The notes beneath the pieces were generated by a model. That model was not told where the DNA came from and ran no database searches. It was given only the letters and a program-made list of their open reading frames with translations. Source: a virus. From it: 64,000 nt of DNA. Location: IMG/VR virus record IMGVR_UViG_3300021956_000001, one strand, 5' to 3'. Positions within the stretch are counted from its first letter, which is position 1; each line of letters opens with the position of its first letter. The translations under genes were made by a program, and so were the position numbers. Of this stretch, positions 5,863-58,323 are shown piece after piece.

Positions 5863-5877
5863 TAATTTTGTTAATTA

Positions 5878-5904
5878 AGCCCTGTAATGTATATTTGCAG
5901 GGCT
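5878..5904 (+). terminator. hairpin after the vWA gene
   Basis: AGCCCTG (5878-84) pairs with CAGGGCT (5898-5904); no long T-run. Confidence 0.4.
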
Positions 5905-5919
5905 ATTAAACTAAAGCTT

Positions 5920-41554: not shown

Positions 41555-41634
41555 TATTTATTACTTTCAATTAAACATTTAGGACACAATCCTTCAGCAC
41601 TCTTTTCAATAAGATGTGTAGGACAAGTGTTCAT
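41554..41634 (-). CDS. 26-aa Cys/His micro-protein
   Basis: Hand translation MNTCPTHLIEKSAEGLCPKCLIESNK; TAATG coupling on both sides. Confidence 0.3.
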   Translation of the reverse strand: MNTCPTHLIEKSAEGLCPKCLIESNK

Positions 41635-41960
41635 TATTTATTATTTTTAGCTTTACGCTCAGCACCCATTTTCTTAAATGTCTTAGCTAATGCTTTACGT
41701 TTAGGTGTACATGTAGCTTTTGTCATTGGTGTGCAATATCCTTTATGTTTTGGATTAACAGCTTTCTGGATCCAATTACCATCTTTAGCTTTGACAGTAG
41801 CTCCTTTTTTAGCAATTACACCACGTCCTTTAAGAACATCAGCTTTAGTAATTTTTCCATCTTTATTAAGATCAGGAAATGAACCACCAGCTTTAGCTTT
41901 TTTAGGTAAAGATCCTCTCATTCTTGGAGCATCTTGGATAAGTTTTTTAATAGTAGCCAT
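41634..41960 (-). CDS. Lys-rich basic protein, MATIKK family member 1 (108 aa)
   Basis: Starts MATIKK; about 25 Lys in 108 aa by my count; ..TPKRKALAKTFKK shared with member 3. Confidence 0.65.
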   Translation of the reverse strand: MATIKKLIQDAPRMRGSLPKKAKAGGSFPDLNKDGKITKADVLKGRGVIAKKGATVKAKDGNWIQKAVNPKHKGYCTPMTKATCTPKRKALAKTFKKMGAERKAKNNK

Positions 41961-41966
41961 GATATA

Positions 41967-42365
41967 TTATTTTTTAGACATTTTACCACCACACTTCATA
42001 CAACCACCAGTTTTCATTTTAGTTGCACCAAGTTCTTTATCTTTCGTCAAAGAAGCTTTTCCTTTAGCACCACCTAATGTTCTCTTTTGAACTTTTGTGT
42101 ATGCACCTTTAGGATCTACAGGACCAACTCTTTTAGCTTGACCTTTAGTCCCAGCGGAAACAGAACCACCATTTTTCTTTTTAGGATAGTTTTTATTAGT
42201 CTTAGGATCTAACATTTTTTTATACTTAGGAATATCATTTAAGTATTGAAAATCTTGAGGATGTTTTGCAACATCTTTATCAGAGATTTTAACACCACTC
42301 ATTTCCCCAGGTTTAGAAGTTCCATTTTGGGCTTTTTTAATGCCAGTTTTTTTAATAGTTGCCAT
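41967..42365 (-). CDS. Lys-rich basic protein, MATIKK family member 2 (132 aa)
   Basis: Starts MATIKK; K/G-rich; C-terminal GGCMKCGGK. Confidence 0.65.
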   Translation of the reverse strand: MATIKKTGIKKAQNGTSKPGEMSGVKISDKDVAKHPQDFQYLNDIPKYKKMLDPKTNKNYPKKKNGGSVSAGTKGQAKRVGPVDPKGAYTKVQKRTLGGAKGKASLTKDKELGATKMKTGGCMKCGGKMSKK

Positions 42366-42396
42366 TGTATTGTTTTATAGATTAATTGTTAATTAT

Positions 42397-42819
42397 TTAG
42401 CAGTTCCATTTACGAAGAGCAAGTGCTTTTCTTGTAGGTTTGCCATCTTTTTTCATAGGACCTTTAACACCAGACATACGAGCACAAAAACTTTTTCTTC
42501 TATTGGCAGATTTACTTCCAGGTTTAAGCTTAGAAGGAGGTGTTGTAACAGCCATTTTTAATTTACTGCCAGGATTAGCACGTCTATAACTTGCTACTCC
42601 CTTTCTATTAAGTCCTCCTTTAGGATCTTTACCTTCAGATCTGGTCCAAGCTGGTGTACTAGCACCATTCTTTGCTTGTTTTATCTTCTTTTCTTGTTGA
42701 AGCATTTCCTTAGTAGGTTGTTTGCCAGATCCTTTATTAGCACGGATGTTATCCCACAAACCACGTTGTGAAGAACTTCCATCAGCTCTTTTAATTAAAG
42801 GTTTTTTAATTGTTGCCAT
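42397..42819 (-). CDS. Lys/Arg-rich basic protein, MATIKK family member 3 (140 aa)
   Basis: Starts MATIKK; RGLWDNIRANKGSGK; ..KPTRKALALRKWNC. Confidence 0.65.
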   Translation of the reverse strand: MATIKKPLIKRADGSSSQRGLWDNIRANKGSGKQPTKEMLQQEKKIKQAKNGASTPAWTRSEGKDPKGGLNRKGVASYRRANPGSKLKMAVTTPPSKLKPGSKSANRRKSFCARMSGVKGPMKKDGKPTRKALALRKWNC

Positions 42820-44090: not shown

Positions 44091-44588
44091 TTAACAAGGT
44101 ACTTGTGCTCCTGTAGGAACAGCAGCATCTCCAATTGAATTGATAGTAAATTGTTTAGTGTAAGTTATACCTAATTGATCAAACTTAACATAAATTGCTT
44201 CATTTGGTGTAAAATATGTAGGAGTAAAAGCAGCATATATTATACTTGCAGTGGATATATCACCATTTGGTACACCCATATTTATAACTGCTCCTGTATT
44301 TGGAGGACATAAAAATACTGTAAATCTACTAGCTTCATAATCATTATACACTAAAGGAGGAGCTGTAGTAGTTGTAGTTGTAGTGCTACTACTAGTGCTA
44401 GTAGAAGTAGATGTACTGGTAGAACTAGTAGTTGTAGTTGTAGGAGCATAATTACAACATTCTGTTGAATTGATTTCTTTCCAGTTACCTACCTTTGGTT
44501 TTGATTTTTGCAAGATCAAACTACTTGGGATTATACGACCTGAACCATCAAATCGAACAAACGCTTTTAATTTATTTTGAAGTGCCAT
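44091..44588 (-). CDS. structural-module protein with poly-Ser/Thr tract, paralogue of 44592..44864
   Basis: N-terminus LKAFVRFDGSGRIIPSSLILQKSKPKVGNWKEI..ECCN shared with neighbour; 27-residue S/T tract; extra ~90-aa C-terminal domain. Confidence 0.65.
   Translation of the reverse strand: MALQNKLKAFVRFDGSGRIIPSSLILQKSKPKVGNWKEINSTECCNYAPTTTTTSSTSTSTSTSTSSSTTTTTTTAPPLVYNDYEASRFTVFLCPPNTGAVINMGVPNGDISTASIIYAAFTPTYFTPNEAIYVKFDQLGITYTKQFTINSIGDAAVPTGAQVPC
44361..44441 (-). repeat. poly-Thr/Ser coding tract
   Basis: TTTTTSSTSTSTSTSTSSSTTTTTTT. Confidence 0.8.
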
Positions 44589-44591
44589 CTA

Positions 44592-44864
44592 TTATACTGT
44601 TGTAGTAGTTGTTGTGGTTGTAGAAGTACTAGTTGATGTAGAAGTACTTGTAGAAGTTGATGTACTAGTTGAACTACTTGTAGTAGTTGTGGTAGGAGCA
44701 GCAGTGGTTGTAGTGGTAGTTGTAGGATTACAACACTCATACGTTAAAATTTCTTGCCATCTACCTACTTTAGGTTTCTTTTTTCTCAGAACTAAGCTGC
44801 CTGCGACAACTCTTCCACTACCATCGTAGCGGACAAATGCTTTAAGATCTCTCTGATTTGCCAT
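44592..44864 (-). CDS. 90-aa protein: conserved N-domain plus terminal poly-Ser/Thr tail
   Basis: LKAFVRYDGSGRVVAGSLVLRKKKPKVGRWQEI..ECCN then 42 residues almost entirely T/S to the stop; followed by TAA TAG. Confidence 0.6.
   Translation of the reverse strand: MANQRDLKAFVRYDGSGRVVAGSLVLRKKKPKVGRWQEILTYECCNPTTTTTTTAAPTTTTTSSSTSTSTSTSTSTSTSTSTTTTTTTTV
44598..44723 (-). repeat. poly-Thr/Ser coding tract
   Basis: TTTTTTTAAPTTTTTSSSTSTSTSTSTSTSTSTSTTTTTTTT. Confidence 0.8.
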
Positions 44865-44868
44865 GTTA

Positions 44869-45885
44869 TTAGTAATTAAGGTTATATTTGTTTGATAATT
44901 TCTTTAATTCGTTGGCATAATGCCATGTACAAAATTGTTTTGATTTCTCATCATTCAACACAATGTTCAAATGATGATCTTTAGTTGGATCTTGTCCCAT
45001 ATGGTATTTACCTTTATAGAAACAAGAGTGTCCATCTTGTTGTGTGGCAGCTATTCCTGCATTATGCAGAATAGATGTTGTTTCTAATCTAGAAATTGGA
45101 TCAGTTGCCCAAGCAAAGTCTAGTTCTTTAACCACTTTAGTTTCTTGTTCTCTAGCCCAAAGGTTCCAAAGAACAGCCCACATATCAGCACACCAGCTTT
45201 GGTATCCTGAATTCTCATCTTTAAAATACTCTCTGTTTATATTCTGAAGGTATGTTCTAATGATAATGCAATCATTCATCACCTTACTCCAGAAATAAGC
45301 ATCTACATTCTTTAAAAGATATTGTGCTCCTCCTGAATTTAAATTATTAGCTTCACAGATTTCTCTGTTGATTCCAATAACACTTGTTAATTCTCCAAGA
45401 ACATCTCTGTTCTTGTAATCTTCAAGCTTCTCTGGAAGCACTTGATGCACCTTACTATCAAAGTAGGATGCGTTTATATAACTATTTGTATCTGAGAGAT
45501 AACATATTTCATCTTCTAAGAACTGATCAACATTGAAATCTTTTGTAAACAGAATATCTGAATCACAATAGAAGATAGCTTTATCTTTTAATTCTGGATG
45601 CTCTTTGAAATGTTTCCAAAGGACGTAAGGACGTAGAATAGGAATATAGATTCCTAATAGATCACTTACATTATCAACATCTTTATAGAAATGAAACTCT
45701 GCTTCTGGATACAAGTCCATTACTTGTTTCCATTTTTGATTAACTTCTCTATTCTTAGGAGTAAAGATCAAGGATATAGCCTTATCAGACTGTCCTATGT
45801 TTCTAAGACTCTCTAGCCACAAATGCACTTGCCAAGTGTAATATGCGTCATCAGGACAAGCCTGAATGAATTTTAAATCTCTCAT
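44869..45885 (-). CDS. putative GT-A-like glycosyltransferase
   Basis: IFYCDSDILF (DxD-like) after a Rossmann-like N-terminal half; weak pattern call. Confidence 0.35.
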   Translation of the reverse strand: MRDLKFIQACPDDAYYTWQVHLWLESLRNIGQSDKAISLIFTPKNREVNQKWKQVMDLYPEAEFHFYKDVDNVSDLLGIYIPILRPYVLWKHFKEHPELKDKAIFYCDSDILFTKDFNVDQFLEDEICYLSDTNSYINASYFDSKVHQVLPEKLEDYKNRDVLGELTSVIGINREICEANNLNSGGAQYLLKNVDAYFWSKVMNDCIIIRTYLQNINREYFKDENSGYQSWCADMWAVLWNLWAREQETKVVKELDFAWATDPISRLETTSILHNAGIAATQQDGHSCFYKGKYHMGQDPTKDHHLNIVLNDEKSKQFCTWHYANELKKLSNKYNLNY

Positions 45886-46018: not shown

Positions 46019-46627
46019 TTAGTCTTGGAATATAGTTGGTGATTGAACAAAGTTTGGTAATAAAAACTCAAAGTCATATGACATTAATGCAGATATATCT
46101 CCACTATCAGCTGTATTAGCTGATGCTACAAGAGCATACCAGTATTCTCCATTTCCTTGAGGATTTTCATATGGATATAAATATAATGCAAAGTCAGAAA
46201 TAGTAGTGGTACCACCACCAGCTAAACTCAATACAGCACCATTTGCTAATGGTGTGTTAATAATGTTATTATCAACTGTAACTTGAAAAGAACCTGTAAT
46301 ATCTCCAGGGAAATAGAAAGGTTGTTGAGTACCGAAGTTTACAGTGCATAAATATTGTCCAAATCCATTACCACTACTATTAATAGGCATAATACCTTTA
46401 ATGTGATAAGAGATTAACTCTACACCATCTGTGTAAGTAAACTTAGCACCATCATTTGTTAATCCTGCAGGTGGATACCATTCAAATGGAATTCCTGTAG
46501 GAGTAGATGGATTTCCAGATACAGAAACTTTTGATGTCACCTTAATTAAATTTTCTAATTGTTTAGATATATTCCAAAGCAGATTTGATTGTTGACTTTG
46601 TCCTATTTGTTTTGCTGGTATTGCCAT
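46019..46627 (-). CDS. structural (fibre/receptor-binding-like) protein sharing an N-terminal module with 46640..47431
   Basis: MAIPAKQIGQSQQSNLLWNISKQLENLIKVTS resembles MAIPSKQIGWGTEENLLWQISKQLETLTNVTY. Confidence 0.6.
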   Translation of the reverse strand: MAIPAKQIGQSQQSNLLWNISKQLENLIKVTSKVSVSGNPSTPTGIPFEWYPPAGLTNDGAKFTYTDGVELISYHIKGIMPINSSGNGFGQYLCTVNFGTQQPFYFPGDITGSFQVTVDNNIINTPLANGAVLSLAGGGTTTISDFALYLYPYENPQGNGEYWYALVASANTADSGDISALMSYDFEFLLPNFVQSPTIFQD

Positions 46628-46639
46628 TATATTATATTT

Positions 46640-47431
46640 TTAAATTGTTCCCATTTGTAATGATCCTTCTGTTGCTGCAAATGGATTTTCTGTAGAATAA
46701 GTTGCTCCAGAATTTGTAGCATTATGTCCATTTCCACTAAGATCAGATAATTCCATTGGTAAATTAGTTCCTTGGAAAATTAACAATACATCACCACTGA
46801 TATTAGGAAGTGTACTTGTTGGTACTGTAAATCCAGCTGGATCATATACAGCTGTATTATTCCATCTAAAGTTACTCATTAATCCATTAAATGAAGAATC
46901 AGGTTCATTACCATCTCCAATAGTTAATGGAAGTCCTTGACTAGAAATACTTCCTGAATAAGGAGAGCTTGCAACTTGGAATCCATCAATTAACATATAA
47001 GCTGTAGATCCAGATCCAATTACACATAAATGGTACCATTGTCCTACATTAGGTTCAAATGCACCATTAATTAATGCACCATTATTTGCCCAAAAATATA
47101 ACTGACCACCTTCTATTGATATTGCATTAGGAGCTGGATAAGCACCAAAGCTATATGGACGTGGAAAACCATTTAAGTTAGATAAGTTTACAAACATTTC
47201 AATAGTAAAATCTCCTACAATATCAAAATCTGTACTAGCAGCAATTCCAACATTACCTGGTCCAGGTGCTACTGTAGTTGTAGTGGTTGTTGTACTTGTA
47301 CTAGTAGAAGTAGTACTAGTTATTTTACCTATATTATATGTGACATTGGTCAAAGTCTCTAATTGCTTAGAGATTTGCCACAACAGATTTTCTTCTGTTC
47401 CCCAACCTATTTGTTTAGATGGTATTGCCAT
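46640..47431 (-). CDS. LamG / concanavalin-A-like lectin domain protein
   Basis: GDFTIEMFV..GGQLYFWAN..GQWYHLCVIG..AYMLIDG..LTIGDG..FNGLMSNFRWNN pattern of Laminin_G_3 domains; S/T linker after shared N-module. Confidence 0.7.
   Translation of the reverse strand: MAIPSKQIGWGTEENLLWQISKQLETLTNVTYNIGKITSTTSTSTSTTTTTTTVAPGPGNVGIAASTDFDIVGDFTIEMFVNLSNLNGFPRPYSFGAYPAPNAISIEGGQLYFWANNGALINGAFEPNVGQWYHLCVIGSGSTAYMLIDGFQVASSPYSGSISSQGLPLTIGDGNEPDSSFNGLMSNFRWNNTAVYDPAGFTVPTSTLPNISGDVLLIFQGTNLPMELSDLSGNGHNATNSGATYSTENPFAATEGSLQMGTI
47273..47320 (-). repeat. poly-Thr/Ser coding tract
   Basis: STTSTSTSTTTTTTTV linker. Confidence 0.75.
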
Positions 47432-47664: not shown

Positions 47665-48135
47665 TTAAAATAATTTGTATTCAATTAATAATCCCATTGT
47701 TGATGGGGTGTTTTGTTTCACTGTATAAATAGCACCTGCTATCCATTTCTTATACTCTAATACTACATTAGCATGTGCTGATGGTTGTGAGAAATCAAAG
47801 GATGCTGTCTTAATTCCAGCATACCCATGTATATGAATCTTATGTAAATTGTTTAATACAGCATTTTGTTTATCGATGATAGACATTTGCTTCACTATAA
47901 TTGTGTCTTTGATAGATAGTTGTTCTCCAAATAATTTTTCTTTCTGTTGAAAATTGTTAATTCTCTCACTCTGGAGAGCAGCTATCTGTTTCAAAGCATC
48001 ATAACTAACAAGATCTTTAGCAATAGCTCTAGCTTGTTTCTCAGTTAATACTACAACACTATCTTTCGTAACGGTCTGTGAAAAACTGCTGAAGCCCACT
48101 AATAGGCAGACTATCAATAACTTTCTTTTCAACAT
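47665..48135 (-). CDS. exported protein overlapping the upstream TM/coiled-coil gene (o-spanin-like position)
   Basis: Signal peptide MLKRKLLIVCLLVGFSSFSQ; start embedded 77 nt inside 48059..48367 in another frame. Confidence 0.55.
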   Translation of the reverse strand: MLKRKLLIVCLLVGFSSFSQTVTKDSVVVLTEKQARAIAKDLVSYDALKQIAALQSERINNFQQKEKLFGEQLSIKDTIIVKQMSIIDKQNAVLNNLHKIHIHGYAGIKTASFDFSQPSAHANVVLEYKKWIAGAIYTVKQNTPSTMGLLIEYKLF

Positions 48136-48367
48136 ATTCTTTTTCTTTAATGGTTTTTATTTTGTCCACTATAATAGTGTCCACCTTTGATAGGCTATCT
48201 ATCTGTTTTGCTTTCTGTGCTGATATATCCTGTAAGCTATCAACCTCAACCTTTAGATGATTTGCCTCATCTAGTAACTTATCATTATTGATGTTACTAT
48301 GTAATGAGGCAATGATCCAAATGATGATGATAACTCCAGCTAACCATTGGTTTTTGATGAAGTTCAT
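48059..48367 (-). CDS. N-terminal TM plus coiled-coil protein (i-spanin- or holin-like)
   Basis: WLAGVIIIIWIIASL helix then charged coiled coil; immediately downstream of endolysin. Confidence 0.55.
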   Translation of the reverse strand: MNFIKNQWLAGVIIIIWIIASLHSNINNDKLLDEANHLKVEVDSLQDISAQKAKQIDSLSKVDTIIVDKIKTIKEKEYVEKKVIDSLPISGLQQFFTDRYER

Positions 48368-48369
48368 AA

Positions 48370-48984
48370 CTATCCTTTAATTTGTTTGTAGAAATTGTTT
48401 GTTCTTGTAACACGATCTTCTAATCCAATTACACCACCGTTTACACGTTTAGTAACCTTTGTAATTGCTTCTGAATTCACCACTGTACATAATGGAAGAA
48501 TACCATTCTTTTTGAAGAAGAATACAGCACTATCTAAATAGTATTTAGAACCTACTAGTTCTGGATGAGCTACACAGTCTTCCTTAATATAATCAGAGAA
48601 TGCTTTGAAGTTATCCTTACCTGTAGTTTGAATACCACCAGCACCTCTATATTTCCATCCATCTCCAGATTTTTCATCTCCATTACCCATTCTAGATGCA
48701 TATACTTTGTTAGCAATCTTCTCTGGTTGTCTTTCATAAGCCTTAGCTAATGCTTCTGTAGGAAAATATTTCTTGAAGATAGTCATTAATCCTTTAGCTC
48801 CATAGTTTAAGTTTTCTCTTTCTGCTGTGAAGTTGTTTGATTCGTGTGAAACTTGTCCTAAGATGTGAGCCAATTGCTCATCTGTTACACCCCATAATTC
48901 TTTCATTTTTGCAAATGAACCTTTACCTAAAATACCATCAGCTGTTAATCCGTTAGCTGCTTGAAATTCTGAAATTTTACTCAT
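48370..48984 (-). CDS. endolysin, GH19 (chitinase-like) muramidase with short peptidoglycan-binding motif
   Basis: LGQVSHESNNFTAERE, GNGDEKSGDGWKYRGAGGIQTTGKDNF, DSAVFFF, RVNGGVIGLEDR; N-terminal NGLTADGILG. Confidence 0.85.
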   Translation of the reverse strand: MSKISEFQAANGLTADGILGKGSFAKMKELWGVTDEQLAHILGQVSHESNNFTAERENLNYGAKGLMTIFKKYFPTEALAKAYERQPEKIANKVYASRMGNGDEKSGDGWKYRGAGGIQTTGKDNFKAFSDYIKEDCVAHPELVGSKYYLDSAVFFFKKNGILPLCTVVNSEAITKVTKRVNGGVIGLEDRVTRTNNFYKQIKG

Positions 48985-48995
48985 TGTTTATTGTT

Positions 48996-50258
48996 TTAAA
49001 GTTTGATTTTACTACCTATTGTTATTGCATAAGTCATAGGTATGTCTTTATTTGTATTACCGATTGTATTTATTCCTAAGTTCGCTTTGAACCTTTGCGT
49101 AAGATTGAAGTCAAAATTGCTTCCCATAATGAATGTAACATATTCGCTGTATGTAAATTTATTTGTAGCTGTTGTATAACTCATAGGTGATGATGATACT
49201 GCCACCATAGGAGATATTGTATATCTTTTAAATGGAAATGGTCTTGTTATAAAGGTTGTAAGTGATGGTGACATCATTACATCTTTTTCCATATTAATGA
49301 ATGTACCTCCAAGGGCATATCCAAACACCATTCCTTTCTTTAATAGGAATACATCATTCATTCCTATAGATACCACTTTAGTATTAAACATCAACATAGC
49401 TGTTAAGCTAAGTCCTGTAATCTTATATATACTTCCTTTATGATATGTATAACCTACAACATCATTACCAAATTTTATAGGCACCTTTCTATCATAATTA
49501 AACAATAGAGTTGTTTTAGATAGAGATAAAGAGAACTGCTTAAGGTTACTCCATATCATTGTATTTGCACTATAAGATGTTGCTCCTGTCAATGAACTTC
49601 TAGACAATCCAAATGATGCTACCTGGTTAAAGGATCCATCAAGGTTTTGCATGGTCATATAATTAGCAGCAATGAGTACAGGTTGTACAGCTTGTTGCTT
49701 TTTCTTGTCTTCCTTTTTCTCTTCTTTCTTCTCTTCTTTTTTCTCTTCCTTTTTTTCTTCTTTCTTAGTCTCTTGTTTAGATTCTTCTTTCTTCTCTTCT
49801 GATTTAGTCTCTGTCTTTGTTTCAGACTTTGATTCTGTTTTAGTTTCAGAACTACTAGAAGATGAACTACTAGAAGCAGGAGGTGGTGGTGCAGCTGCTA
49901 CTGGTGCAGGTGGAGGAGGAGGAGCTGGAATATTAATAGCACTTGATGCAGCTGCTGTTGCTGCTGATGTAGCAGCTTGAGTAGCTTGTGTTGCTGTTTG
50001 TTGAACTACAGTTTGAGTAGCTTGTGCTACAGAACATGGATTATATGTAGTCCACCAAGTGTATGTTTCTTCCAACCAAATCTGTAATGCTCCTGACTGT
50101 ACATCAGCTGCTGTAAATGCTTTACTTCTATTGTAAAACATAATTACAGTGGATCCCTGAAGAGGAATAGTAAATACTTTCATCTCTCCAGTGCATTTAT
50201 CGTAATAAGTTTGTGTTACAGTTTGACTGCTAGCACTTATTCCAATAAACAAGAACAA
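48996..50258 (-). CDS. exported protein: Pro-rich and Lys/Glu-rich linkers plus beta-rich C-terminal domain (possible OM protein); non-ATG start
   Basis: Track start is TTG 50258. In-frame upstream codons read I-K-K-I-I-F-I (ATT at 50279), giving a classical signal peptide xKKIIFILFLFIGISASSQ. PPPPPAPVAAAPPPP, then S-run and (E/K)-rich tract. Confidence 0.6.
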   Translation of the reverse strand: MFLFIGISASSQTVTQTYYDKCTGEMKVFTIPLQGSTVIMFYNRSKAFTAADVQSGALQIWLEETYTWWTTYNPCSVAQATQTVVQQTATQATQAATSAATAAASSAINIPAPPPPPAPVAAAPPPPASSSSSSSSSETKTESKSETKTETKSEEKKEESKQETKKEEKKEEKKEEKKEEKKEDKKKQQAVQPVLIAANYMTMQNLDGSFNQVASFGLSRSSLTGATSYSANTMIWSNLKQFSLSLSKTTLLFNYDRKVPIKFGNDVVGYTYHKGSIYKITGLSLTAMLMFNTKVVSIGMNDVFLLKKGMVFGYALGGTFINMEKDVMMSPSLTTFITRPFPFKRYTISPMVAVSSSPMSYTTATNKFTYSEYVTFIMGSNFDFNLTQRFKANLGINTIGNTNKDIPMTYAITIGSKIKL

Positions 50259-50274
50259 TATAAATATTATCTTT

Positions 50275-50991
50275 TTAATTTGTAAAGATTTGTTTTTGTA
50301 TCATTCGCTTCACCACTTTGGCTGTAGCACTTTCTAATGCTTTCTTTGTTGATGTACCTATACTAGATTGATTAAACTTCACCTCATCAACATTATCATT
50401 ATTCATAAGTGTAAGTTCTCTAGTTGTAATAGATTTACCTAGTCCAGATCCAGTCATATAAGTTCCAGATTGTGCATCCACCATCTTAACTTGTAGTCCT
50501 AGTCTAGTTACTAGTTTATTCTTTACACCATCTTTAAGATTGATTGTTTCATCTTCTGAAATAGAGAAGTCATAAACCTCGATATAACAGAAGTATTTAG
50601 CCAATACAATGTTTCCTTTCAGTTCTATCTTTTCTGTTGATATACCCTTCTGAGATGCTTTATATTGAGTAATCATTCTTTGTTTAATATCATTCTTAGT
50701 CTCAACGAATTCAAATCTGAATGTTTCTTCTAAGTATGCTACAACAATATTAGTAAGACCAAGTCCTATTCTATAATCTCCAAGTTCTGGATACTGTTCA
50801 ATCACTTCTTTAGACACACCAATGTCAAGAAGTGCTACAGGAATAGGTTTGCCATTATATTCAGGTAGAGTGTAAACAGATTCTTTTCCTTCAAATCCTG
50901 CTTGATAATCTTCAGTGACAGTTTTACCAATCACTTGGCCACAAGCAATACTTGTTACTAAGAATAATAGACTACCAAGGCTCTTCTTCAT
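50275..50991 (-). CDS. CsgG-like lipoprotein
   Basis: MKKSLGSLLFLVTSIAC lipobox-like; blocks GLGLTNIVVAYLEETFRFEFVE, YIEVYDFSI, LGLQVKMVDAQSGT, ALESATAKVV parallel CsgG blocks (by eye). Confidence 0.45.
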   Translation of the reverse strand: MKKSLGSLLFLVTSIACGQVIGKTVTEDYQAGFEGKESVYTLPEYNGKPIPVALLDIGVSKEVIEQYPELGDYRIGLGLTNIVVAYLEETFRFEFVETKNDIKQRMITQYKASQKGISTEKIELKGNIVLAKYFCYIEVYDFSISEDETINLKDGVKNKLVTRLGLQVKMVDAQSGTYMTGSGLGKSITTRELTLMNNDNVDEVKFNQSSIGTSTKKALESATAKVVKRMIQKQIFTN

Positions 50992-51265
50992 TTTTCTTTT
51001 TTTCTGGTGCTGGTTGAGTAGCTGGTGCAGCTTTTTCTTTAATGATTACAGTTTTACCTGGAGCAGCTTGTTGTTGCTTTTGTTGGTTAGTGTTTGTAAT
51101 ATTAATTACTGGAGCAGGTGCAGGAGCTGCAACTTCTTGCTTAGCTTCTTCTTTATCTTCACCATTTAACTTAGTTGTTACAAATCCACCTACAGCCACT
51201 GTAATTGTACTTGCCAATCCTATAAGGATGTTCTTGATTGAGTTTCCTCCTTGTTCTTCGCTCAT
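50972..51265 (-). CDS. TM protein with low-complexity A/P/Q/K tail (97 aa)
   Basis: ILIGLASTITVAVGGFVTT helix. Confidence 0.5.
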   Translation of the reverse strand: MSEEQGGNSIKNILIGLASTITVAVGGFVTTKLNGEDKEEAKQEVAAPAPAPVINITNTNQQKQQQAAPGKTVIIKEKAAPATQPAPEKKKNEEEPW

Positions 51266-51633
51266 AATAAATTAATTAAGGTTTTACCTATTTGTTGATT
51301 GTTTGAGTTATATAATTGAAGCTCGTATGAACTTCTTGGTAATGCTTTTGTATATACAGATAGTAAGTTATCTCCAGCTTTAGCATCTACTGATTCTGAA
51401 GAAACTGTCTTACCAGATAAGTCAACTATTTTAATTGTCACTTTATCTGCTGCTTCTAGTCTTACATTCATCTGTGCTTCTGCAGTAACAAAGTTTGAAG
51501 CAAGTTTAATACCAACAGTGCTAAGTCCTAACTCTGCAGGAACAGAAGATGAAGGAGCAACAATTGCATTATCAACCTCTGAACAAGAAAACATAAATGT
51601 AAACAATATAATTGGGATGAGTAATCTTTTCAT
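51262..51633 (-). CDS. small lipoprotein whose mature part resembles a T9SS type-A C-terminal sorting domain
   Basis: MKRLLIPIILFTFMFSC; KVTIKIVDLSGKTVSSESVDAKAGDNLLSVYTKALPRSSYELQLYNSNNQQIGKTLINL matches the beta-sandwich pattern of por_Secre_tail domains. Confidence 0.45.
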   Translation of the reverse strand: MKRLLIPIILFTFMFSCSEVDNAIVAPSSSVPAELGLSTVGIKLASNFVTAEAQMNVRLEAADKVTIKIVDLSGKTVSSESVDAKAGDNLLSVYTKALPRSSYELQLYNSNNQQIGKTLINLL

Positions 51634-53228
51634 TATTGTATATTTAAAATTACTTTGTTAGCTTTAGTATCTACAGCTTCTGCAAAGTAGGTGAATATTA
51701 ATCCTGATGTGTTGGTTAATTGTGCTTTTGGTGTAAATATAAGTTTGTAAGGAGTTCCTTGTTTAACTGTAGAAGCTCCTGTCTTATCTATTGATCCAAA
51801 TGTTATAATGTTCTCTTTATGTGTAGAGAAGTTTGAAATTGTATTTCCTGTATCAAATGTTACATTATCAAATGTAAGTTTGCTGTCATCATATCCTATT
51901 TGATATTCAGCTCCAGCTAAACCTGTAGCATTTAATCCTACTGTTACAACCACTTTACCATTAACTAATGCTGTATTAATTGATGTATCTGTAGTTGATG
52001 TTAATTGAGCTGATATACCAGATACAGAAAGTTGCTTACCAGCTGTATTAGTTGTACCAGAAACTGATAGTGGAGAGGAGTGAGAGAAATCAAGATCTCC
52101 TGCCCATGCATACGATAGATTATAGACTTCATTATCTGCTGTAGGTGTAATATTTGTTGGACCAGTTGGGTTAGCAAAGCTAGATGTAAATCCTGATAAG
52201 AACTTAGTAGGTTTAGTCATGTCTGTTGTAGGAAGTAATAATCCTTGTACACCAGAAAGATCTACACCCATCACTGTGGCAAATAAGTAATATGCATCTT
52301 GGCTATCAAAGTTTTGGTCCTGTGTAACATTAGCAATCCTATTCTCTAATATTGTAGAGAAGTATGGATCTGTATTATTAATACCTCTATCATTAATTGC
52401 TTTGAATGCCTTATATGCATCTGTAACAGTAATAATATTACTAGGGACATTTTGCCCCCATGCAGGATTTACCATTACTAGGTATTGTTTATTCTTCTCT
52501 ACTTTATCTGTTAGGAATTCTCCAGCACTATCTAATGGTCCTACAGCAACTGGTTGTGGATTAGTAGTCCAATCAACAACTCCTTGTGCATTTGTAGCCA
52601 TCACTTGTATAGCATGTTTTGTAATGTCATACCCAGCAGGAAATGCCACTTTAAACTTAACACTAGATACAAGTCTTGATACACTGTTTAAATTCAACCA
52701 TAGTACAGTAGATCCAACATTAGATACAGCTTGACCATTTCTTAATGTTGCATAAGCTGCGTGTAGTTTATGTATTTGTTGATATGATGTATTATCTTTA
52801 ATTGTATATCTCTGTGTAGCAATCACTCCTGATATAGGAGCATCTGTTCTTTGTACAGAAATTTGTGCAACATTCCAATCAGGATTTGGAGAATAACTCA
52901 TACCATATCTATATTGACCATAAAGATCTCCTACAGCAATCGTAGAATTATAATTGTAAGTATAGTTTGCCCAGTGAGTATAGAATGTTTGTGTAGAATT
53001 CCCTTGTAAGAATGTTGTAGAGTTTGGTACCAATTCCAAATGTTTATTTGAATAATGATATCTAAACCATAAATAGTTTACATCTAATCCTTGATTATTC
53101 ACTACATATTGTAATGTAATAACATCACCCACTTTATATGGACCTGGTTCTACCACTACTTGATCAATAATAACTTGACCAAAGGATAACATAGGTAGCA
53201 ATAATAACAACGCTAATAGCTTCTTCAT
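51633..53228 (-). CDS. 531-aa secreted protein (beta-rich; weak cohesin/Ig-like C-terminal region)
   Basis: Signal peptide MKKLLALLLLLPMLSFGQ; ..VVVTVGLNATGLAGAEYQIGYDDSKLTFDNV.. Confidence 0.6.
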   Translation of the reverse strand: MKKLLALLLLLPMLSFGQVIIDQVVVEPGPYKVGDVITLQYVVNNQGLDVNYLWFRYHYSNKHLELVPNSTTFLQGNSTQTFYTHWANYTYNYNSTIAVGDLYGQYRYGMSYSPNPDWNVAQISVQRTDAPISGVIATQRYTIKDNTSYQQIHKLHAAYATLRNGQAVSNVGSTVLWLNLNSVSRLVSSVKFKVAFPAGYDITKHAIQVMATNAQGVVDWTTNPQPVAVGPLDSAGEFLTDKVEKNKQYLVMVNPAWGQNVPSNIITVTDAYKAFKAINDRGINNTDPYFSTILENRIANVTQDQNFDSQDAYYLFATVMGVDLSGVQGLLLPTTDMTKPTKFLSGFTSSFANPTGPTNITPTADNEVYNLSYAWAGDLDFSHSSPLSVSGTTNTAGKQLSVSGISAQLTSTTDTSINTALVNGKVVVTVGLNATGLAGAEYQIGYDDSKLTFDNVTFDTGNTISNFSTHKENIITFGSIDKTGASTVKQGTPYKLIFTPKAQLTNTSGLIFTYFAEAVDTKANKVILNIQ

Positions 53229-53698
53229 AATTTTAATTTATCAATTAACTGCTCACACACTTTCTTTAGTGCTGAGGAAACGTTGGTTTGTGAAAATTTG
53301 CCTCCCTTATCAATAACTAATGTAGAGGCTGATATAGATTTAGCTTCACCTTTTATTACTACAGGCTTTGATGTTTTACCATCTGTAATCAATTTAGCCT
53401 GTGCAATAATCTGTGTCACTTCTTCTGTGCTACCATAAACTGCTAGTTGCATTGTGGTAGTCTTTACATCAAAATAGAGCATCTCTAATTCGAGCACTCT
53501 ATTTGAATTAGGAACCAAATCAAGGTTCTTCTCTTGCAACACTTCTGCAAGAATATTTTTTACTCCAAAGGCTAGGTCTCTATTACCAGCTAAAGGACCC
53601 ATCTCGATATTATTCTTGATGGATCCTATAGTGATATCTTGAGCAGTAGCCACTACACTCAAAAATAAAAAAAGACTACTCGCCAGTGTCTTCATCAT
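53225..53698 (-). CDS. secreted protein, short paralogue of the CsgG-like lipoprotein
   Basis: MMKTLASSLFLFLSVVATAQ; AFGVKNILAEVLQEKNLDLV, LEMLYFDV, AQAKLITDGKT, ALKKVCEQLIDKL parallel 50275..50991. Confidence 0.5.
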   Translation of the reverse strand: MMKTLASSLFLFLSVVATAQDITIGSIKNNIEMGPLAGNRDLAFGVKNILAEVLQEKNLDLVPNSNRVLELEMLYFDVKTTTMQLAVYGSTEEVTQIIAQAKLITDGKTSKPVVIKGEAKSISASTLVIDKGGKFSQTNVSSALKKVCEQLIDKLKL

Positions 53699-54443: not shown

Positions 54444-56531
54444 ATGAAAATACTATATCTAGCACCTCATTTATCTACAGGAGGAATGCCAGCTTTTCTA
54501 TTGAAAACAATAGAGACACTTAAAGATGATGTTGAAATATGCGTTGTAGAATATGCATGTCATAGTCTTGATTATGTAGTACAACGTAATGCCATTATGG
54601 ATCTTGTTCCTGTATATACATTACATGAAGATAAGATGGAACTATTCAATGTAATAGAAGAATTCAAACCAGATGTAATTCATATACACGAACCATCAGA
54701 AAGATTGGATAGAAGGATGATTACTAAGCTATATGATAACAATAGGACCTATCGTATTGTAGAAACATGTCATGATGTATCATTCAATCCAGATGAAGAA
54801 AAAATATTTCATCCAGACTATTATGCATTCTGTACTCCTTACCATGTAGATACATTTGGTAAGATGCCATCTATGTATAGTGTTATAGAGTTTCCTATTG
54901 ATGATTATAGATTATCTGAAGAAGATGTATATGAAACTAAGATAGCTTTAGGTATGAATCTTAAAATGAAGCATGTTGTGAATGTTGGTCTTTGGACTCC
55001 TGGTAAGAATCAAGGTGAAATGTTAGAACTAGCTAGACAAATGCCAGATGTAGCATTTCATTTTGTAGGTAATCAAGCTGGAAACTTTGAACACTATTGG
55101 GGACCATTGATGAAAGCTGGAGTTCCAGATAATGTAAAGATATGGGGAGAAAGAAGTGATGCTGATAGATTTATAGATGCAGCAGATGTGTTTATGTTCA
55201 ACAGCACATGGGAATGTAATCCTTTGGTAATAAGAGAAGCTATATCTAAGGGTAAGAAGATCTTAGCTAGAAATCTTCCTCAGTACAAGAATATGTTCAC
55301 TAGATACATTACAAATCTAGATCCAAGAAAACTAAAGAATCAATTGTCAGATCTTCTTGAAGATAAAACAACTTATGATATTCTTAAGAATAACACAACA
55401 GCTAATTTTAGAAATAAATTAATGTCACTATATAGAGTGGTAACAGAATTTGATATTATGAAAAATGATGTAAAAGATTATAAGATTACGCAACACTTTG
55501 TAGGTCAACCATTTATAGAAATTACAGGAACAAGTGATAGTAATTTTACTATCGAATTCTATGATGAAACAGATAACTTATTCCATAGAGATGTAGTGAA
55601 GATTAATCACTGGGTAAAACTTAGTAGAGAATATTACACACAATGGACAACTAAAGTGTATAAAGATGATGAGCTAGTGTATACTAACTTATTAAACTAT
55701 GCAGATCAAAGAGTGTATATTGCTTTTGATAGTTCTTCATTAGGAGATAATATTGCTTGGATGCCTTATGTAGAAGAATTCAGAAAGAAGCATCATTGTA
55801 AAATGATTGTTTCTACATTCAAAAACTTCTTGTTTGAATCTCAGTACCCAGAGATTGAATTTGTTGAACCAGGATCCATAGTTACTAACTTGTATGGGAT
55901 GTATAAAATTGGTTGGTTCTATGATTATAACAAGGAACCTACATTACCAAACACTATACCATTACAAATGGCAGCTACAAATATTTTAGGTCTTGAGTAC
56001 ACAGAAATAAAACCTGAGATTATAGATCATAAAGATGATAGTGTTAGTGGATACATTACAATAGCTACTAATAGTACAGCAGGATGTAAGTTCTGGACTA
56101 GAGAGGGCTGGCAAGAAGTAATTAACTATTTACATGGAGAAGGCTGGTTAGTAATCAATACATCTAAAGAATCTAATCCTTTTGATAACTGTCAACCACT
56201 TCTTAATACAAGTATGGATAATACGATCACAGCTATATCTAATAGCAAGTTCTTCATTGGACTATCTAGTGGATTATCATGGTTAGCCTGGGCATTAGAA
56301 ACTCCTGTTATAATGATTTCTAACTTTACAGAAGAAGGTCATGAATTCAGTTGTCATAGAGTGACTAATACCAATGTATGTTATGGATGTTGGAATGATC
56401 CTAAATATAAGTTTGATAGAGGAGATTGGGATTGGTGTCCTGTACATAAGGGTACAGACAGACAATTTGAATGTCACAAAGAAATAACACCAGAGATGGT
56501 TATTACAGAAATAAAAAAGCTCCTTAATTAG
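54444..56531 (+). CDS. two-domain glycosyltransferase: N-terminal GT4 (GT-B) plus C-terminal GT9 heptosyltransferase-like domain
   Basis: Track start 54423 is TTG; ATG 54444 gives MKILYLAPHLSTGGMP (GT4 N-terminus), ECNPLVIREA (ExxxxxxxE). C-terminal RVYIAFDSSSLGDNIAWMPYV, ITIATNSTAGCKFWTREGW, FIGLSSGLSWLAWAL (GT9 blocks). Then a Cys-rich tail. Confidence 0.7.
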   Translation: MKILYLAPHLSTGGMPAFLLKTIETLKDDVEICVVEYACHSLDYVVQRNAIMDLVPVYTLHEDKMELFNVIEEFKPDVIHIHEPSERLDRRMITKLYDNNRTYRIVETCHDVSFNPDEEKIFHPDYYAFCTPYHVDTFGKMPSMYSVIEFPIDDYRLSEEDVYETKIALGMNLKMKHVVNVGLWTPGKNQGEMLELARQMPDVAFHFVGNQAGNFEHYWGPLMKAGVPDNVKIWGERSDADRFIDAADVFMFNSTWECNPLVIREAISKGKKILARNLPQYKNMFTRYITNLDPRKLKNQLSDLLEDKTTYDILKNNTTANFRNKLMSLYRVVTEFDIMKNDVKDYKITQHFVGQPFIEITGTSDSNFTIEFYDETDNLFHRDVVKINHWVKLSREYYTQWTTKVYKDDELVYTNLLNYADQRVYIAFDSSSLGDNIAWMPYVEEFRKKHHCKMIVSTFKNFLFESQYPEIEFVEPGSIVTNLYGMYKIGWFYDYNKEPTLPNTIPLQMAATNILGLEYTEIKPEIIDHKDDSVSGYITIATNSTAGCKFWTREGWQEVINYLHGEGWLVINTSKESNPFDNCQPLLNTSMDNTITAISNSKFFIGLSSGLSWLAWALETPVIMISNFTEEGHEFSCHRVTNTNVCYGCWNDPKYKFDRGDWDWCPVHKGTDRQFECHKEITPEMVITEIKKLLN

Positions 56532-56773: not shown

Positions 56774-57115
56774 TTAAAAATTAATATTTGGAATATATCC
56801 TATTAAATCAAATAATGTTCTATAATCAACAGTTATTTCTACTTCATTTGGTATATTTTTATTTGATATCATTACTATACAATCATCAATTAATTCAACA
56901 TTTGTATTTGGATTATCAGAATGATTAGTATATCTTCCTAAATCATCTGTTTCATTCCAGGGTTCCTGCATTGTTTCTTTTTGCCAAAGATATCTTGACT
57001 CTTCACTTTGAGCCTCTTTAGTTACCCATTTACCAATAATAGTATCTATATTAATATTAGATGTAGATACTATTTTAATATTATTTAAATCAGATTTATC
57101 TATTTTATAATTCAT
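56774..57115 (-). CDS. minimal SET-domain protein (putative protein lysine methyltransferase), 113 aa
   Basis: LGRYTNHSDNPNT (cf. RFxNHSCxPN) and NEVEITVDYR (cf. GEELTxDY); size like chlorovirus vSET; TAATG-coupled to the upstream gene. Confidence 0.5.
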   Translation of the reverse strand: MNYKIDKSDLNNIKIVSTSNINIDTIIGKWVTKEAQSEESRYLWQKETMQEPWNETDDLGRYTNHSDNPNTNVELIDDCIVMISNKNIPNEVEITVDYRTLFDLIGYIPNINF

Positions 57116-57951
57116 TACTTGATATTATGAGTAAGTATATTATTTGCAAAATAAGTATGTGAAGGAGATAATGATAATGGATATATTGTTTTAATTTCTT
57201 TATTAAATTTAACAGAAGTTACTTCTATTTCATTTTTATTAATATCATATAAATAATCTCCAATTTGAATAGATCCTATAGTATCAAATCTCCATAAACC
57301 ATCTCTTTTATATAATTGACTATGGAAAGGAGTTGCTTCTAATAATCCATCATTTATCATAACAGTTTGATCAGCAGTTTGTTTTTCAATTTTAATAATA
57401 GGAGAATCTATTCTTGATTCTTGTAAATTATAAGTATTCCATTTATAAAGTTCTTCTACATCATTTGTATCTGTTAATGTACTTATATTAGATGACATTA
57501 ATAACTGATCAACATAAAGATTTTCTATTGGTACCTGTTGTCCATTCACAAGTGTTATTAAAGTTCCTTCTACAAAACATATAACACAAGCACTTGCTGC
57601 TGCTAAAACAGTAGTACTACTACTCCATGATCTAGCTATACTTCCATCAGAATAAAATGCAGTAGAAGCGTATGTAGTTCCTCCTGAATTAGTATAAATC
57701 TTAGTTGCTGTACTTAAATCAGATGAATTTATATAAAAATATCCTGCTGATACTCCACTACAAGCTATAGTTTTTGTACTTCCATAATATAAATATACAT
57801 AAGTTAGTGAACTGTATCCATAAAATTCAGATATAGCATCAGGAGTAGTCTTTCCAGCTGCAACACTTAATGTGTGCAATGAATAACTAGAGCTACCTAA
57901 TGCTGTATGAATTTGAGAAATCGATAAAGGTCCTGAACTTGGTAATGCCAT
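57115..57951 (-). CDS. protein with C-terminal Hint (intein/hedgehog-type autoprocessing) domain
   Basis: Block A CFVEGTLITLVNG at Cys125, block B TPFH, blocks F/G YPLSLSPSHTYFANNILTHN followed only by IK-stop. Confidence 0.7.
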   Translation of the reverse strand: MALPSSGPLSISQIHTALGSSSYSLHTLSVAAGKTTPDAISEFYGYSSLTYVYLYYGSTKTIACSGVSAGYFYINSSDLSTATKIYTNSGGTTYASTAFYSDGSIARSWSSSTTVLAAASACVICFVEGTLITLVNGQQVPIENLYVDQLLMSSNISTLTDTNDVEELYKWNTYNLQESRIDSPIIKIEKQTADQTVMINDGLLEATPFHSQLYKRDGLWRFDTIGSIQIGDYLYDINKNEIEVTSVKFNKEIKTIYPLSLSPSHTYFANNILTHNIK

Positions 57952-57957
57952 TTGTTA

Positions 57958-58323
57958 TTAGATTAGTAAAGTGGTAGTACTAGTTGTTGTTGGTGCCCAA
58001 GGAGAAGGTACTGGTTCATACTTAGGAGCTATTTGAGCTTCAATCTGTTTTGTAATACGCTCTTGCATATGTACTTTATCAGAAACAGCCTCTAACCAAG
58101 CTACAACATTTTCTGGTTGTAAGTCTGCAAAAGGAATATAGTTTTCTGTATCTGTAGGAAGAGGCATAGGAGTTGCTCCTATAAAGACACCTTCAATACC
58201 ATCTTCGTTTATACCAACATAGTTATATCTAACTCTTGTTACTACGTCTGTTAATTCTCCCAACACTGGAGCTATCTCCAGTTTCATTGTGTCATCTGTT
58301 AAGAATGTGAATGTTATTGCCAT
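57958..58323 (-). CDS. hypothetical fibre-module protein (121 aa)
   Basis: TAATG-coupled to fibre gene; ends PTTTSTTTLLI. Confidence 0.55.
   Translation of the reverse strand: MAITFTFLTDDTMKLEIAPVLGELTDVVTRVRYNYVGINEDGIEGVFIGATPMPLPTDTENYIPFADLQPENVVAWLEAVSDKVHMQERITKQIEAQIAPKYEPVPSPWAPTTTSTTTLLI

Follow-up and report, generated by a model that had tools for sequence, protein, structure and literature searches.

A GT8-like phage enzyme family and the poly-threonine tags of its neighbours: a candidate system for glycosylating phage structural proteins

A 64,000-nucleotide stretch of viral DNA (IMG/VR record IMGVR_UViG_3300021956_000001; "the window" hereafter means this whole stretch) carries a gene for a 338-amino-acid (338-aa) protein, followed by two small genes whose products, of 90 and 165 aa, contain long runs of Thr and Ser. 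Fold prediction, a conserved motif, tight gene linkage and the joint gain and loss of enzyme and tag across phages lead us to propose that the 338-aa protein, a GT8-like member of the phage family PHROG 4417, probably attaches O-linked glycans, in the cytoplasm, to poly-Thr/Ser tags of proteins that build the phage particle or are associated with it.

The 338-aa protein matched the profile of PHROG 4417, a phage protein family without an assigned function, over its full length (E = 3e-56; residues 5–329 against profile positions 2–290 of 293). No Pfam family was found at E ≤ 0.1 and no NCBIfam family was found, and sequence and profile searches of the PDB gave no sequence match. An AlphaFold2 model was built on 20 homologues (predicted local distance difference test score, pLDDT, 78; predicted template modelling score, pTM, 0.84), and in a Foldseek search of the PDB the 50 best matches listed were all glycosyltransferases (E about 1e-5; template modelling (TM) scores 0.4–0.56), including WbbM, the core-mannan synthase CmsA/Ktr4, glycogenin, XXYLT1 and the catalytic domain of UGGT. 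Several of these (glycogenin, UGGT and XXYLT1) act on proteins or protein-bound glycans. Among the predicted viral structures of BFVD, proteins annotated as GT8 were matched and the nearest neighbours were uncharacterised phage proteins. Residues Y106, D108 and D110 are invariant in both an alignment of 20 close homologues and one of eight homologues with identities down to 30%, and the motifs invariant down to 30% identity include Y106-x-D108-S-D110, S131-D132, G186-A-Q, H274-N-A-G277 and F289-x-K-G-x-Y294. No hydrophobic or membrane segment was detected in the protein. The model and the motif predict that the 338-aa protein is a soluble, DxD-type, GT-A-fold, GT8-like glycosyltransferase of an uncharacterised family. 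Structure prediction and fold search alone classified it; because no Pfam, NCBIfam or PDB sequence match was obtained, we file it as GT8-like by fold only, in a separate family. A large database contains 2,850 proteins that match the enzyme, the best 120 of which are 70–91% identical to it, and, within a set of 1.84 billion representative proteins, ~780 clusters at 50% identity belong to the family. Fusions to methyltransferase (Methyltransf_24/23), GT2, GT6 or radical S-adenosylmethionine (SAM)/SPASM domains occur in longer members (six examples). The methyltransferase fusions fit the idea of methylated glycans, and the radical-SAM/SPASM fusion suggests that further peptide or protein modification chemistry may act on the same substrates.

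Homologues of the enzyme were identified by tblastn in 77 of 50,697 phage records, with 35% identity in a Chryseobacterium phage and about 30% in phages of Lactobacillus, Enterococcus, Staphylococcus, Lactococcus and Clostridium. The three genes immediately upstream of the enzyme gene in the Chryseobacterium phage have products with a common N-terminal domain of their own, and two of these products bear long Ser/Thr tracts; homology of this domain to the N-terminal domain of the small window proteins was not detectable (hhalign probability 0.1). In the Firmicutes phages the enzyme gene lies inside head or tail modules, and the tagged proteins are encoded within a few kb of it, directly adjacent in several cases. 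Lactobacillus phage PLE3 places the enzyme gene between the capsid gene and the connector genes; its capsid protein ends in PTTTTTTTSK, its major tail protein in ETTTTTTTSK, and a 125-aa head-module protein consists largely of five Thr blocks. The enzyme gene of Lactococcus phage 1706 follows that of a "major structural protein" ending in ten Thr residues and HHD, and Enterococcus phages phiFL2B and VPE25 have poly-Thr tails on head and/or major tail proteins. The carriers of these tracts across phages (capsid, tail-tube, decoration or fibre proteins) are not homologous to each other. One annotation in this group deserves correction: phiFL2B gp49 (GenBank GQ478085; positions 5001..5909 of our locus L006), a PHROG 4417 homologue, is almost certainly wrongly labelled "major tail protein", and the upstream gp48, which bears a poly-Thr tail, is likely the tail-tube protein.

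Co-variation of enzyme and tag was followed in two sets of loci. The first comprised 27 loci encoding a tail protein 65–100% identical to phiFL2B gp48. The enzyme was encoded directly downstream in 12 of the 27, all of which have poly-Thr tails on both the tail protein and the head protein; none of the 15 loci without the enzyme has such a tail. The enzyme-bearing loci form three identity tiers (about 100%, 84% and 66%) and are interleaved with enzyme-free ones. The second set consisted of 69 loci that encode a capsid protein like that of PLE3 and extend at least 2.5 kb further downstream; 36 carry the enzyme and a poly-Thr tail, 33 carry neither and none is discordant. Capsid proteins of this set that are 94–99% identical differ only in their ends, which read either ...VLIPKP or ...VLVPTTTTTTTSK / ...PGKTTTTTTSHG. 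Across both sets, poly-Thr tails were thus present in 48/48 enzyme-bearing loci versus 0/48 enzyme-free loci, a pattern that clearly points to tails and enzyme being gained and lost as a unit. Because these loci come from closely related prophages, the number of independent gain and loss events is far smaller than 96.

A reverse test began from the tags. When 120 IMG/VR stretches picked solely for eight consecutive ACN codons were compared with 116 poly-Pro controls of equal total length, the enzyme was encoded in seven of the former, always within 350 bp of the tract, and in none of the latter (Fisher p = 0.014). The tagged proteins in these seven stretches are tail-protein-like or fibre-like and range from 229 to 2,067 aa. 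Together with the predicted fold and the perfect concordance of the two locus sets, this linkage lends support to an earlier reading of the window made without database searches (the sequence-only reading), in which the phage was suggested to encode the means of decorating its own fibre or surface proteins with methylated glycans.

In the window, the three genes share one direction and lie close together as in an operon: 4 bp separate the enzyme gene from the 90-aa gene, and 3 bp separate the latter from the 165-aa gene (coordinates in Table 1); the 90-aa open reading frame (ORF) stops with TAA TAG and the ATG of the 165-aa ORF follows directly. The 90-aa and 165-aa proteins are paralogues that align over a 47-aa N-terminal domain (N-domain) up to its terminal ECCN (BLASTP E = 2e-19, 58% identity). 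The Ser/Thr tract spans residues 48–89 in the 90-aa protein, where AAP is the sole interruption in its 42 residues, and residues 50–75 in the 165-aa protein. The sequence-only reading had described this anatomy correctly, from the adjacent paralogues with their common N-domain and the tandem stop codons to the YCDSD motif of the 338-aa protein (residues 106–110) and the 42-residue run; only the second run, given as 27 residues, had to be shortened to 26.

This arrangement recurs in close relatives of the window. Among 80 IMG/VR loci whose enzyme is 63–77% identical to that of the window, a strict pattern identifies one to three N-domain ORFs on the downstream side of the enzyme gene in 74, and five of the remaining six have an N-domain ORF recognisable by eye or another poly-Thr protein, for a total of 79/80; in the sixth exceptional locus an inserted gene follows the enzyme gene and the sequence then ends. 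A GIY-YIG-like gene is inserted right after the enzyme gene, at the usual site of the carrier gene, in one IMG/VR relative (L016 9019..9729). Loci anchored on the neighbouring DUF5856 gene gave the same picture: where at least 2.5 kb lay upstream and an enzyme gene could be detected (36 loci), enzyme and N-domain gene were always present together, and among DUF5856-anchored loci with enough sequence an N-domain gene is found in every one and the enzyme in all but one. The enzyme/N-domain module is thus core in the window's lineage (lytic type, about 110 kb), which makes a co-variation test within this lineage uninformative.

The N-domain family consists of 169 clusters. The 120 that were examined are 52–83 aa long, each with an N-domain (consensus ...LKAFVRYDGSGRVVAGSLxLRKxKPKVGxWxEIxxYECCN) and, behind it, between none and three blocks of five or more Ser/Thr residues. 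Most blocks consist of some seven consecutive Thr residues, VAP or AAP frequently stands between them, and the overall count is 1,716 Thr to 221 Ser. The 90-aa protein of the window has the longest tail seen, 45 residues with 39 Ser/Thr, against a median of 24 residues with 15 Ser/Thr. An AlphaFold2 model of the 165-aa protein has pLDDT >90 for approximately residues 11–40, places three short beta strands within residues 8–39 and shows a disordered tract; its C-terminal domain was of low confidence and hence was not used for a fold search, and the N-domain alone is too small for a meaningful one. A tblastn search of the phage records with the N-domain gave no match, and Pfam matches of the Ser/Thr-rich proteins to HCV_capsid, New_glue and MGC-24 were rejected as below threshold and of low complexity. 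Relatives of the window display four architectures: an N-domain with a tail; an N-domain, a Thr linker and a variable Cys-rich globular domain; an N-domain, a globular domain and a terminal Thr tail; and an N-domain with a non-Thr tail of the form LLLE...ILQEDG...IIL. The acidic, Leu-rich conserved tail GDFLLLESSTPEDNQYILQEDGSRIIL that replaces the Thr tail in some N-domain paralogues (from six IMG/VR loci) may be an alternative, non-glycosylated interaction motif. Another relative encodes a 454-aa protein with two tandem N-domains followed by a tract of nine Thr residues (L042 4873..6237). Virion-attached proteins are typically built in this way, from a constant N-terminal module and changing distal parts, and by this analogy attachment of the carrier to the virion is the most likely role of the N-domain.

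These data can be assembled into a working model. A soluble, metal-dependent (DxD) GT-A enzyme made late in infection would transfer sugar in the cytoplasm from a nucleotide-sugar donor onto the hydroxyls of poly-Thr/Ser tracts, which would serve as portable acceptor tags. Whichever sugar is used, we propose that the first unit of the glycan is added by this enzyme. Two small dedicated carriers would bear most of the tags in the window's lineage, one composed of N-domain and tag and the other of N-domain, tag and variable distal domain, with further tags acting as linkers in fibre-like proteins. The N-domain would sit on the virion and the glycosylated tail would point away from it, forming either a brush like that of mucins or a stiff stalk that holds a distal binding domain, and it might contribute to shielding, to the prevention of aggregation or to adhesion. 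The other sugar-related enzymes of the phage (a GT2, an FkbM-family methyltransferase and a fusion of a GT4 with a TibC-like domain) could lengthen the glycans, add variety to them or methylate them, or could modify Ser residues. In a broader formulation, for which we find the case evenly balanced, the PHROG 4417 enzyme and a Thr tag of about 7–40 residues would form a portable two-part "glyco-tag" module that is exchanged among phages of at least two bacterial phyla and can be attached to virion proteins of any kind, be it the capsid, the tail tube, a decoration protein, a fibre linker or the 47-aa anchor domain, giving a mucin-like coat to phages of Bacteroidota and of gut and dairy Firmicutes.

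Several points weigh against the proposal that the 338-aa enzyme glycosylates these tags. Its structural likeness to known glycosyltransferases is moderate, with about 10–14% identity at the TM scores given above, and comes with no Pfam or PDB sequence match. The independent events behind the co-variation are few, with at least three identity tiers in the first set and three tail variants in the second, and 113 of the 120 viral poly-Thr loci have no enzyme within the sequence available for them. Co-variation shows that enzyme and tag depend on each other and not what chemistry joins them, so the enzyme could extend a sugar added by another. That the tags carry glycans is a prediction from sequences and a modelled fold, as is, by analogy, the virion location of the N-domain proteins.

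The possibility that another enzyme adds the first sugar is best considered with the remaining sugar enzymes of the window, all three of which had been named in the sequence-only reading and were recovered by Pfam and NCBIfam. The C-terminal half of the GT4 fusion (residues 367–693), listed there as GT9, matches TIGR04414, "autotransporter strand-loop-strand O-heptosyltransferase", with 266 bits against a curated equivalog cut-off of 200 (E = 4.8e-79) and aligns with Escherichia coli TibC (PDB 4RAP) at E = 5.6e-51, including the CYGCW...WCP...FEC motif. All four iron-finger cysteines of TibC (C339, C342, C358 and C370; positions from PMC4358343) align with Cys in the phage fusion. TibC/Aah enzymes O-glycosylate Ser residues of repetitive adhesins, and TibC modifies Ser, not Thr (PMC4358343); for this reason pure poly-Thr suits the TibC-like domain less well than the collagen repeats of G-T-S type or the (ST)n portions of tracts. 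The (ST)n stretches in the tracts of the window, whose Ser content is unusually high, or the G-T-S collagen repeats might be the targets of this domain. Because the phage encodes an O-heptosyltransferase domain of the TibC/Aah family, whose members are proven protein O-glycosyltransferases, protein glycosylation is independently plausible here. The GT2 and FkbM genes lie at the junction of early and late genes, and the same position in relatives holds other sets of GT2 and acetyltransferase genes, an organisation that would fit a variable glycan-tailoring cassette beside a conserved core enzyme.

With three other glycosyltransferase domains in the window, the tags might be glycosylated with a first sugar from the TibC-like domain, the GT2 or the host, and the 338-aa enzyme might only extend it, much as GT8 enzymes often elongate glycans in the glycosylation of serine-rich-repeat adhesins of Firmicutes. 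We consider this unlikely. The inspected structural regions of PLE3, 1706 and phiFL2B (36–41 kb prophages) contain no other annotated glycosyltransferase, and perfect co-variation with the tails is seen for the 338-aa family enzyme alone. Hardly any phages have TibC-like genes: they occur in four of the 50,697 records (three huge phages of 636–735 kb and one Microcystis phage), and the accessory glycosyltransferases vary between close relatives in which the 338-aa enzyme is core.

The N-domain proteins could also be read as precursors of glycopeptides resembling ribosomally synthesised and post-translationally modified peptides (RiPPs), released at lysis or acting inside the cell and forming no part of the virion. 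Their length of 52–90 aa, a conserved N-terminal part with a hypervariable C-terminal part, a CC motif at the junction, their position directly after the gene of a modifying enzyme and the fusion of one enzyme-family member to a radical-SAM/SPASM domain typical of peptide maturases would all be in keeping with this. Globular domains of 60–320 aa, however, stand before or after the tract in many relatives, the same tag is found on capsid and tail-tube proteins of other phages, and the N-domain is a well-predicted folded beta unit and not a disordered leader. No protease or exporter gene is adjacent in the window: neither a leader peptidase nor an exporter was found beside the locus, where the neighbours encode a DUF5856 protein, small proteins without assigned function and fibre-like proteins. 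A RiPP-like role is on this evidence improbable.

Two further alternatives place the target of the enzyme outside phage proteins. Ser/Thr-rich linkers are common in secreted proteins of Bacteroidota, and many phage glycosyltransferases act on host polysaccharides or DNA (reviewed in PMC12619734). On this view the 338-aa enzyme would modify host envelope glycans (receptor masking or serotype conversion) or another non-protein target, the tracts would be flexible linkers without modification, and their connection to the enzyme would be indirect. We regard this as quite improbable for an enzyme that has no membrane segment, is encoded inside head and tail modules and is core in a ~110-kb lytic-type lineage. 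Glycosylation of phage DNA (hypermodified bases) as a protection against restriction would have precedent in well-known DNA-modifying phage glycosyltransferases (bioRxiv 10.1101/2023.12.21.572611 and PMC13326640) and a dNMP (deoxynucleoside monophosphate) kinase is encoded in the window, but it is highly improbable given that ThyX is accompanied by no hydroxymethylase or TET-like enzyme among the window proteins scanned and that small temperate Firmicutes phages place the enzyme in a structural operon beside the tagged proteins. Both alternatives are disfavoured because neither explains the joint gain and loss of the enzyme and of terminal tails that link nothing.

The window as a whole has a low GC content (guanine plus cytosine, ~32%) and resembles a segment of a phage genome, in which plus-strand replication genes up to ~40 kb (encoding a DnaB-like helicase, primase, RecA, dNMP kinase, ThyX and a uracil-DNA glycosylase (UDG)-like protein) are followed by a minus-strand late-gene block that contains the enzyme gene. 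A megablast search with 5 kb around the locus gave no match among the 50,697 phage records and the DNA polymerase of the window is only ~31% identical to those of known phages, so no isolate relative could be used. No capsid or tail-tube gene was identified in the window.

Table 1. Coordinates and main characteristics of the enzyme locus, other sugar-related genes and tract-bearing genes in the window.
Feature	Coordinates	Strand	Characteristics
GT2 glycosyltransferase, 220 aa	40114..40776	+	Pfam PF00535, E = 6.4e-9; possible glycan-elongating enzyme
FkbM-family methyltransferase, 209 aa	40788..41417	-	Pfam PF05050, E = 6.8e-15; NCBIfam TIGR01444; possible sugar O-methyltransferase
165-aa paralogue B	44091..44588	-	N-domain 44448..44588; 26-residue Thr/Ser linker 44364..44441; 90-aa C-terminal domain 44094..44363
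90-aa paralogue A	44592..44864	-	47-aa beta-rich N-domain and 42-residue Thr/Ser tail (DNA 44598..44723); proposed acceptor/carrier
338-aa enzyme gene	44869..45885	-	ORF; proposed O-glycosylation of poly-Thr/Ser tags
202-aa paralogue of 263-aa protein	46019..46627	-	MAIPxKQIG N-module in common; no Ser/Thr tract
263-aa protein	46640..47431	-	Second conserved N-module, MAIPSKQIGW...; Thr/Ser linker residues 38-53 (DNA 47273..47320); Laminin_G_3/ConA-like lectin domain; probable acceptor
Fusion of N-terminal GT4 (GT-B) and C-terminal TibC/Aah-type (bacterial autotransporter heptosyltransferase, BAHT) O-heptosyltransferase	54444..56531	+	Pfam Glycos_transf_1 and Glyco_transf_9; NCBIfam TIGR04414
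121-aa DUF7936 protein	57958..58323	-	Ends in PTTTSTTTLLI; tract residues 112-118 (DNA 57970..57990); possible acceptor
614-aa collagen-repeat fibre protein	61690..63534	-	18-residue Thr/Ser linker, residues 526-543 (DNA 61906..61959), then Cys-rich C-terminal domain; possible acceptor

Ser/Thr tracts are not confined to the two N-domain proteins. The ORFs of the window contain eight runs of at least six consecutive Ser/Thr residues, versus about 0.16 expected from composition, and seven of the eight fall in minus-strand late genes. The tracts that the sequence-only reading had reported in three other late proteins (of 263, 121 and 614 aa) are all present. Its suggestion that the tracts are slippage-prone and variable in length holds for the variation, which among relatives involves whole blocks of seven Thr, and sits less well with simple slippage: the tract DNA consists of imperfect repeats (61–80% matches, 2.7–3.7 perfect hexamer copies) and is therefore a poor substrate for it. 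Two contigs from one sample differ by exactly one Thr block (68 versus 59 aa), which indicates that tract length changes in whole blocks.

Other late genes of the window have features of their own. The large fibre proteins encoded at 58323..61664 and 61690..63534 (both on the minus strand) are built of G-T-S/G-S-S collagen-type triplets (Pfam Collagen, E = 8e-46 and 5e-50); the former has a C-terminal endosialidase-chaperone (Peptidase_S74) domain and, near its N-terminus, a GSGECCNW motif that echoes the ECCN end of the N-domain. The 278-aa product of 57115..57951 (minus strand) has a C-terminal half resembling a Hint/intein-type autoprocessing domain, which starts with CFVEGTLITL and ends with ILTHNIK (sub-threshold Pfam matches to Intein_splicing, E = 0.018, and PT-HINT, E = 0.11), and an N-terminal half resembling the small Cys-bounded distal domains found after Thr linkers in other loci. 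At 41634..42819 (minus strand) lie tandem genes for three small paralogues, all very basic and starting with MATIKK, and the same set is found in relatives; one of the proteins matches DUF6321 (E = 3e-22) and PHROG 4689, and the three may be internal or DNA-associated virion proteins. Finally, N-termini that resemble signal peptides or those of lipoproteins, an unusual trait in a phage, mark the products of a run of genes at 47665..53698 (minus strand). Among these products, one of 531 aa has a cohesin-like domain, one of 420 aa has a run of nine Ser residues and a long Lys/Glu-rich repeat followed by a possible beta-barrel-like C-terminus, and one of 123 aa weakly matches the C-terminal sorting domain of type IX secretion (24 bits, cut-off 27), a hint at a Bacteroidota host.

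If the enzyme does glycosylate the tags, virion glycosylation could be read from sequence, as a PHROG 4417 homologue together with a poly-Thr tail, and would be a widespread phage trait. It would extend to phages of Enterococcus, Lactobacillus, Lactococcus, Staphylococcus/Mammaliicoccus and Clostridium, and also to a large lineage of uncultured aquatic phages with probable Bacteroidota hosts; several of these groups are of importance in phage therapy and dairy fermentation. A family of ~780 protein clusters now without a function would gain one, and the minimal pair of enzyme and tag, directly testable in cultivable phages, might serve in the glyco-engineering of capsids. No description of poly-Thr tails on phage proteins or of a PHROG 4417-type enzyme family was found in the literature searched, the coverage of which was incomplete.

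Several known systems resemble parts of the one proposed here. In Gram-positive serine-rich-repeat adhesins and eukaryotic mucins, long Ser/Thr tracts are densely O-glycosylated, in the bacterial case in the cytoplasm, and GT8-fold enzymes are involved. The initiating enzymes of those systems belong to other families (GT4 GtfA/B and GT27 ppGalNAc-T), the substrates are cell-surface adhesins or mucins and not virus particles, and Pfam and PDB searches detected no sequence relationship of the 338-aa enzyme to the enzymes involved. Chlorovirus PBCV-1 encodes machinery for cytoplasmic glycosylation of its capsid, including a methyltransferase domain, and so shares with our proposal a virus-encoded apparatus for a virion protein, sugar methylation included; it differs in being a eukaryotic virus with N-linked glycans on Asn residues of a folded capsid protein and in having no homopolymeric tag. 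The BAHT enzymes TibC and Aah likewise modify many Ser residues of a repetitive protein by cytoplasmic O-glycosylation, and the fusion in the window passes the TIGR04414 cut-off with the cysteines kept. This likeness is one of the fusion and leaves the 338-aa protein aside; the phage copy has a GT4 domain joined to it, and no autotransporter-like substrate gene was noticed in the window.

To our knowledge, glycosylated phage particles have so far been demonstrated essentially only in mycobacteriophages, whose glycans alter antibody recognition. Judged by analogy, the virion glycosylation of these phages is functionally the closest known system. Glycans are described on the C-termini of capsid and tail-tube proteins of Che8, Corndog and Myrna, added by phage-encoded glycosyltransferases, and, for Corndog, an O-methyltransferase and glycosyltransferases encoded within the structural operon (Freeman et al. 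2023, Cell Host Microbe, as cited in PMC12619734, PMC11256854 and PMC4351075). The two systems have in common phage-encoded cytoplasmic enzymes, which are predicted in our case, and the Firmicutes relatives tag the same two proteins, capsid and tail tube. They differ in the enzyme family, with no Mycobacterium phage among the 77 records matched by the 338-aa protein in tblastn, and in the tag, which here is homopolymeric Thr that moves between unrelated proteins and is known from sequence alone. In contrast to the capsid and tail-tube proteins modified in mycobacteriophages, the window's lineage uses a dedicated carrier with a 47-aa domain.

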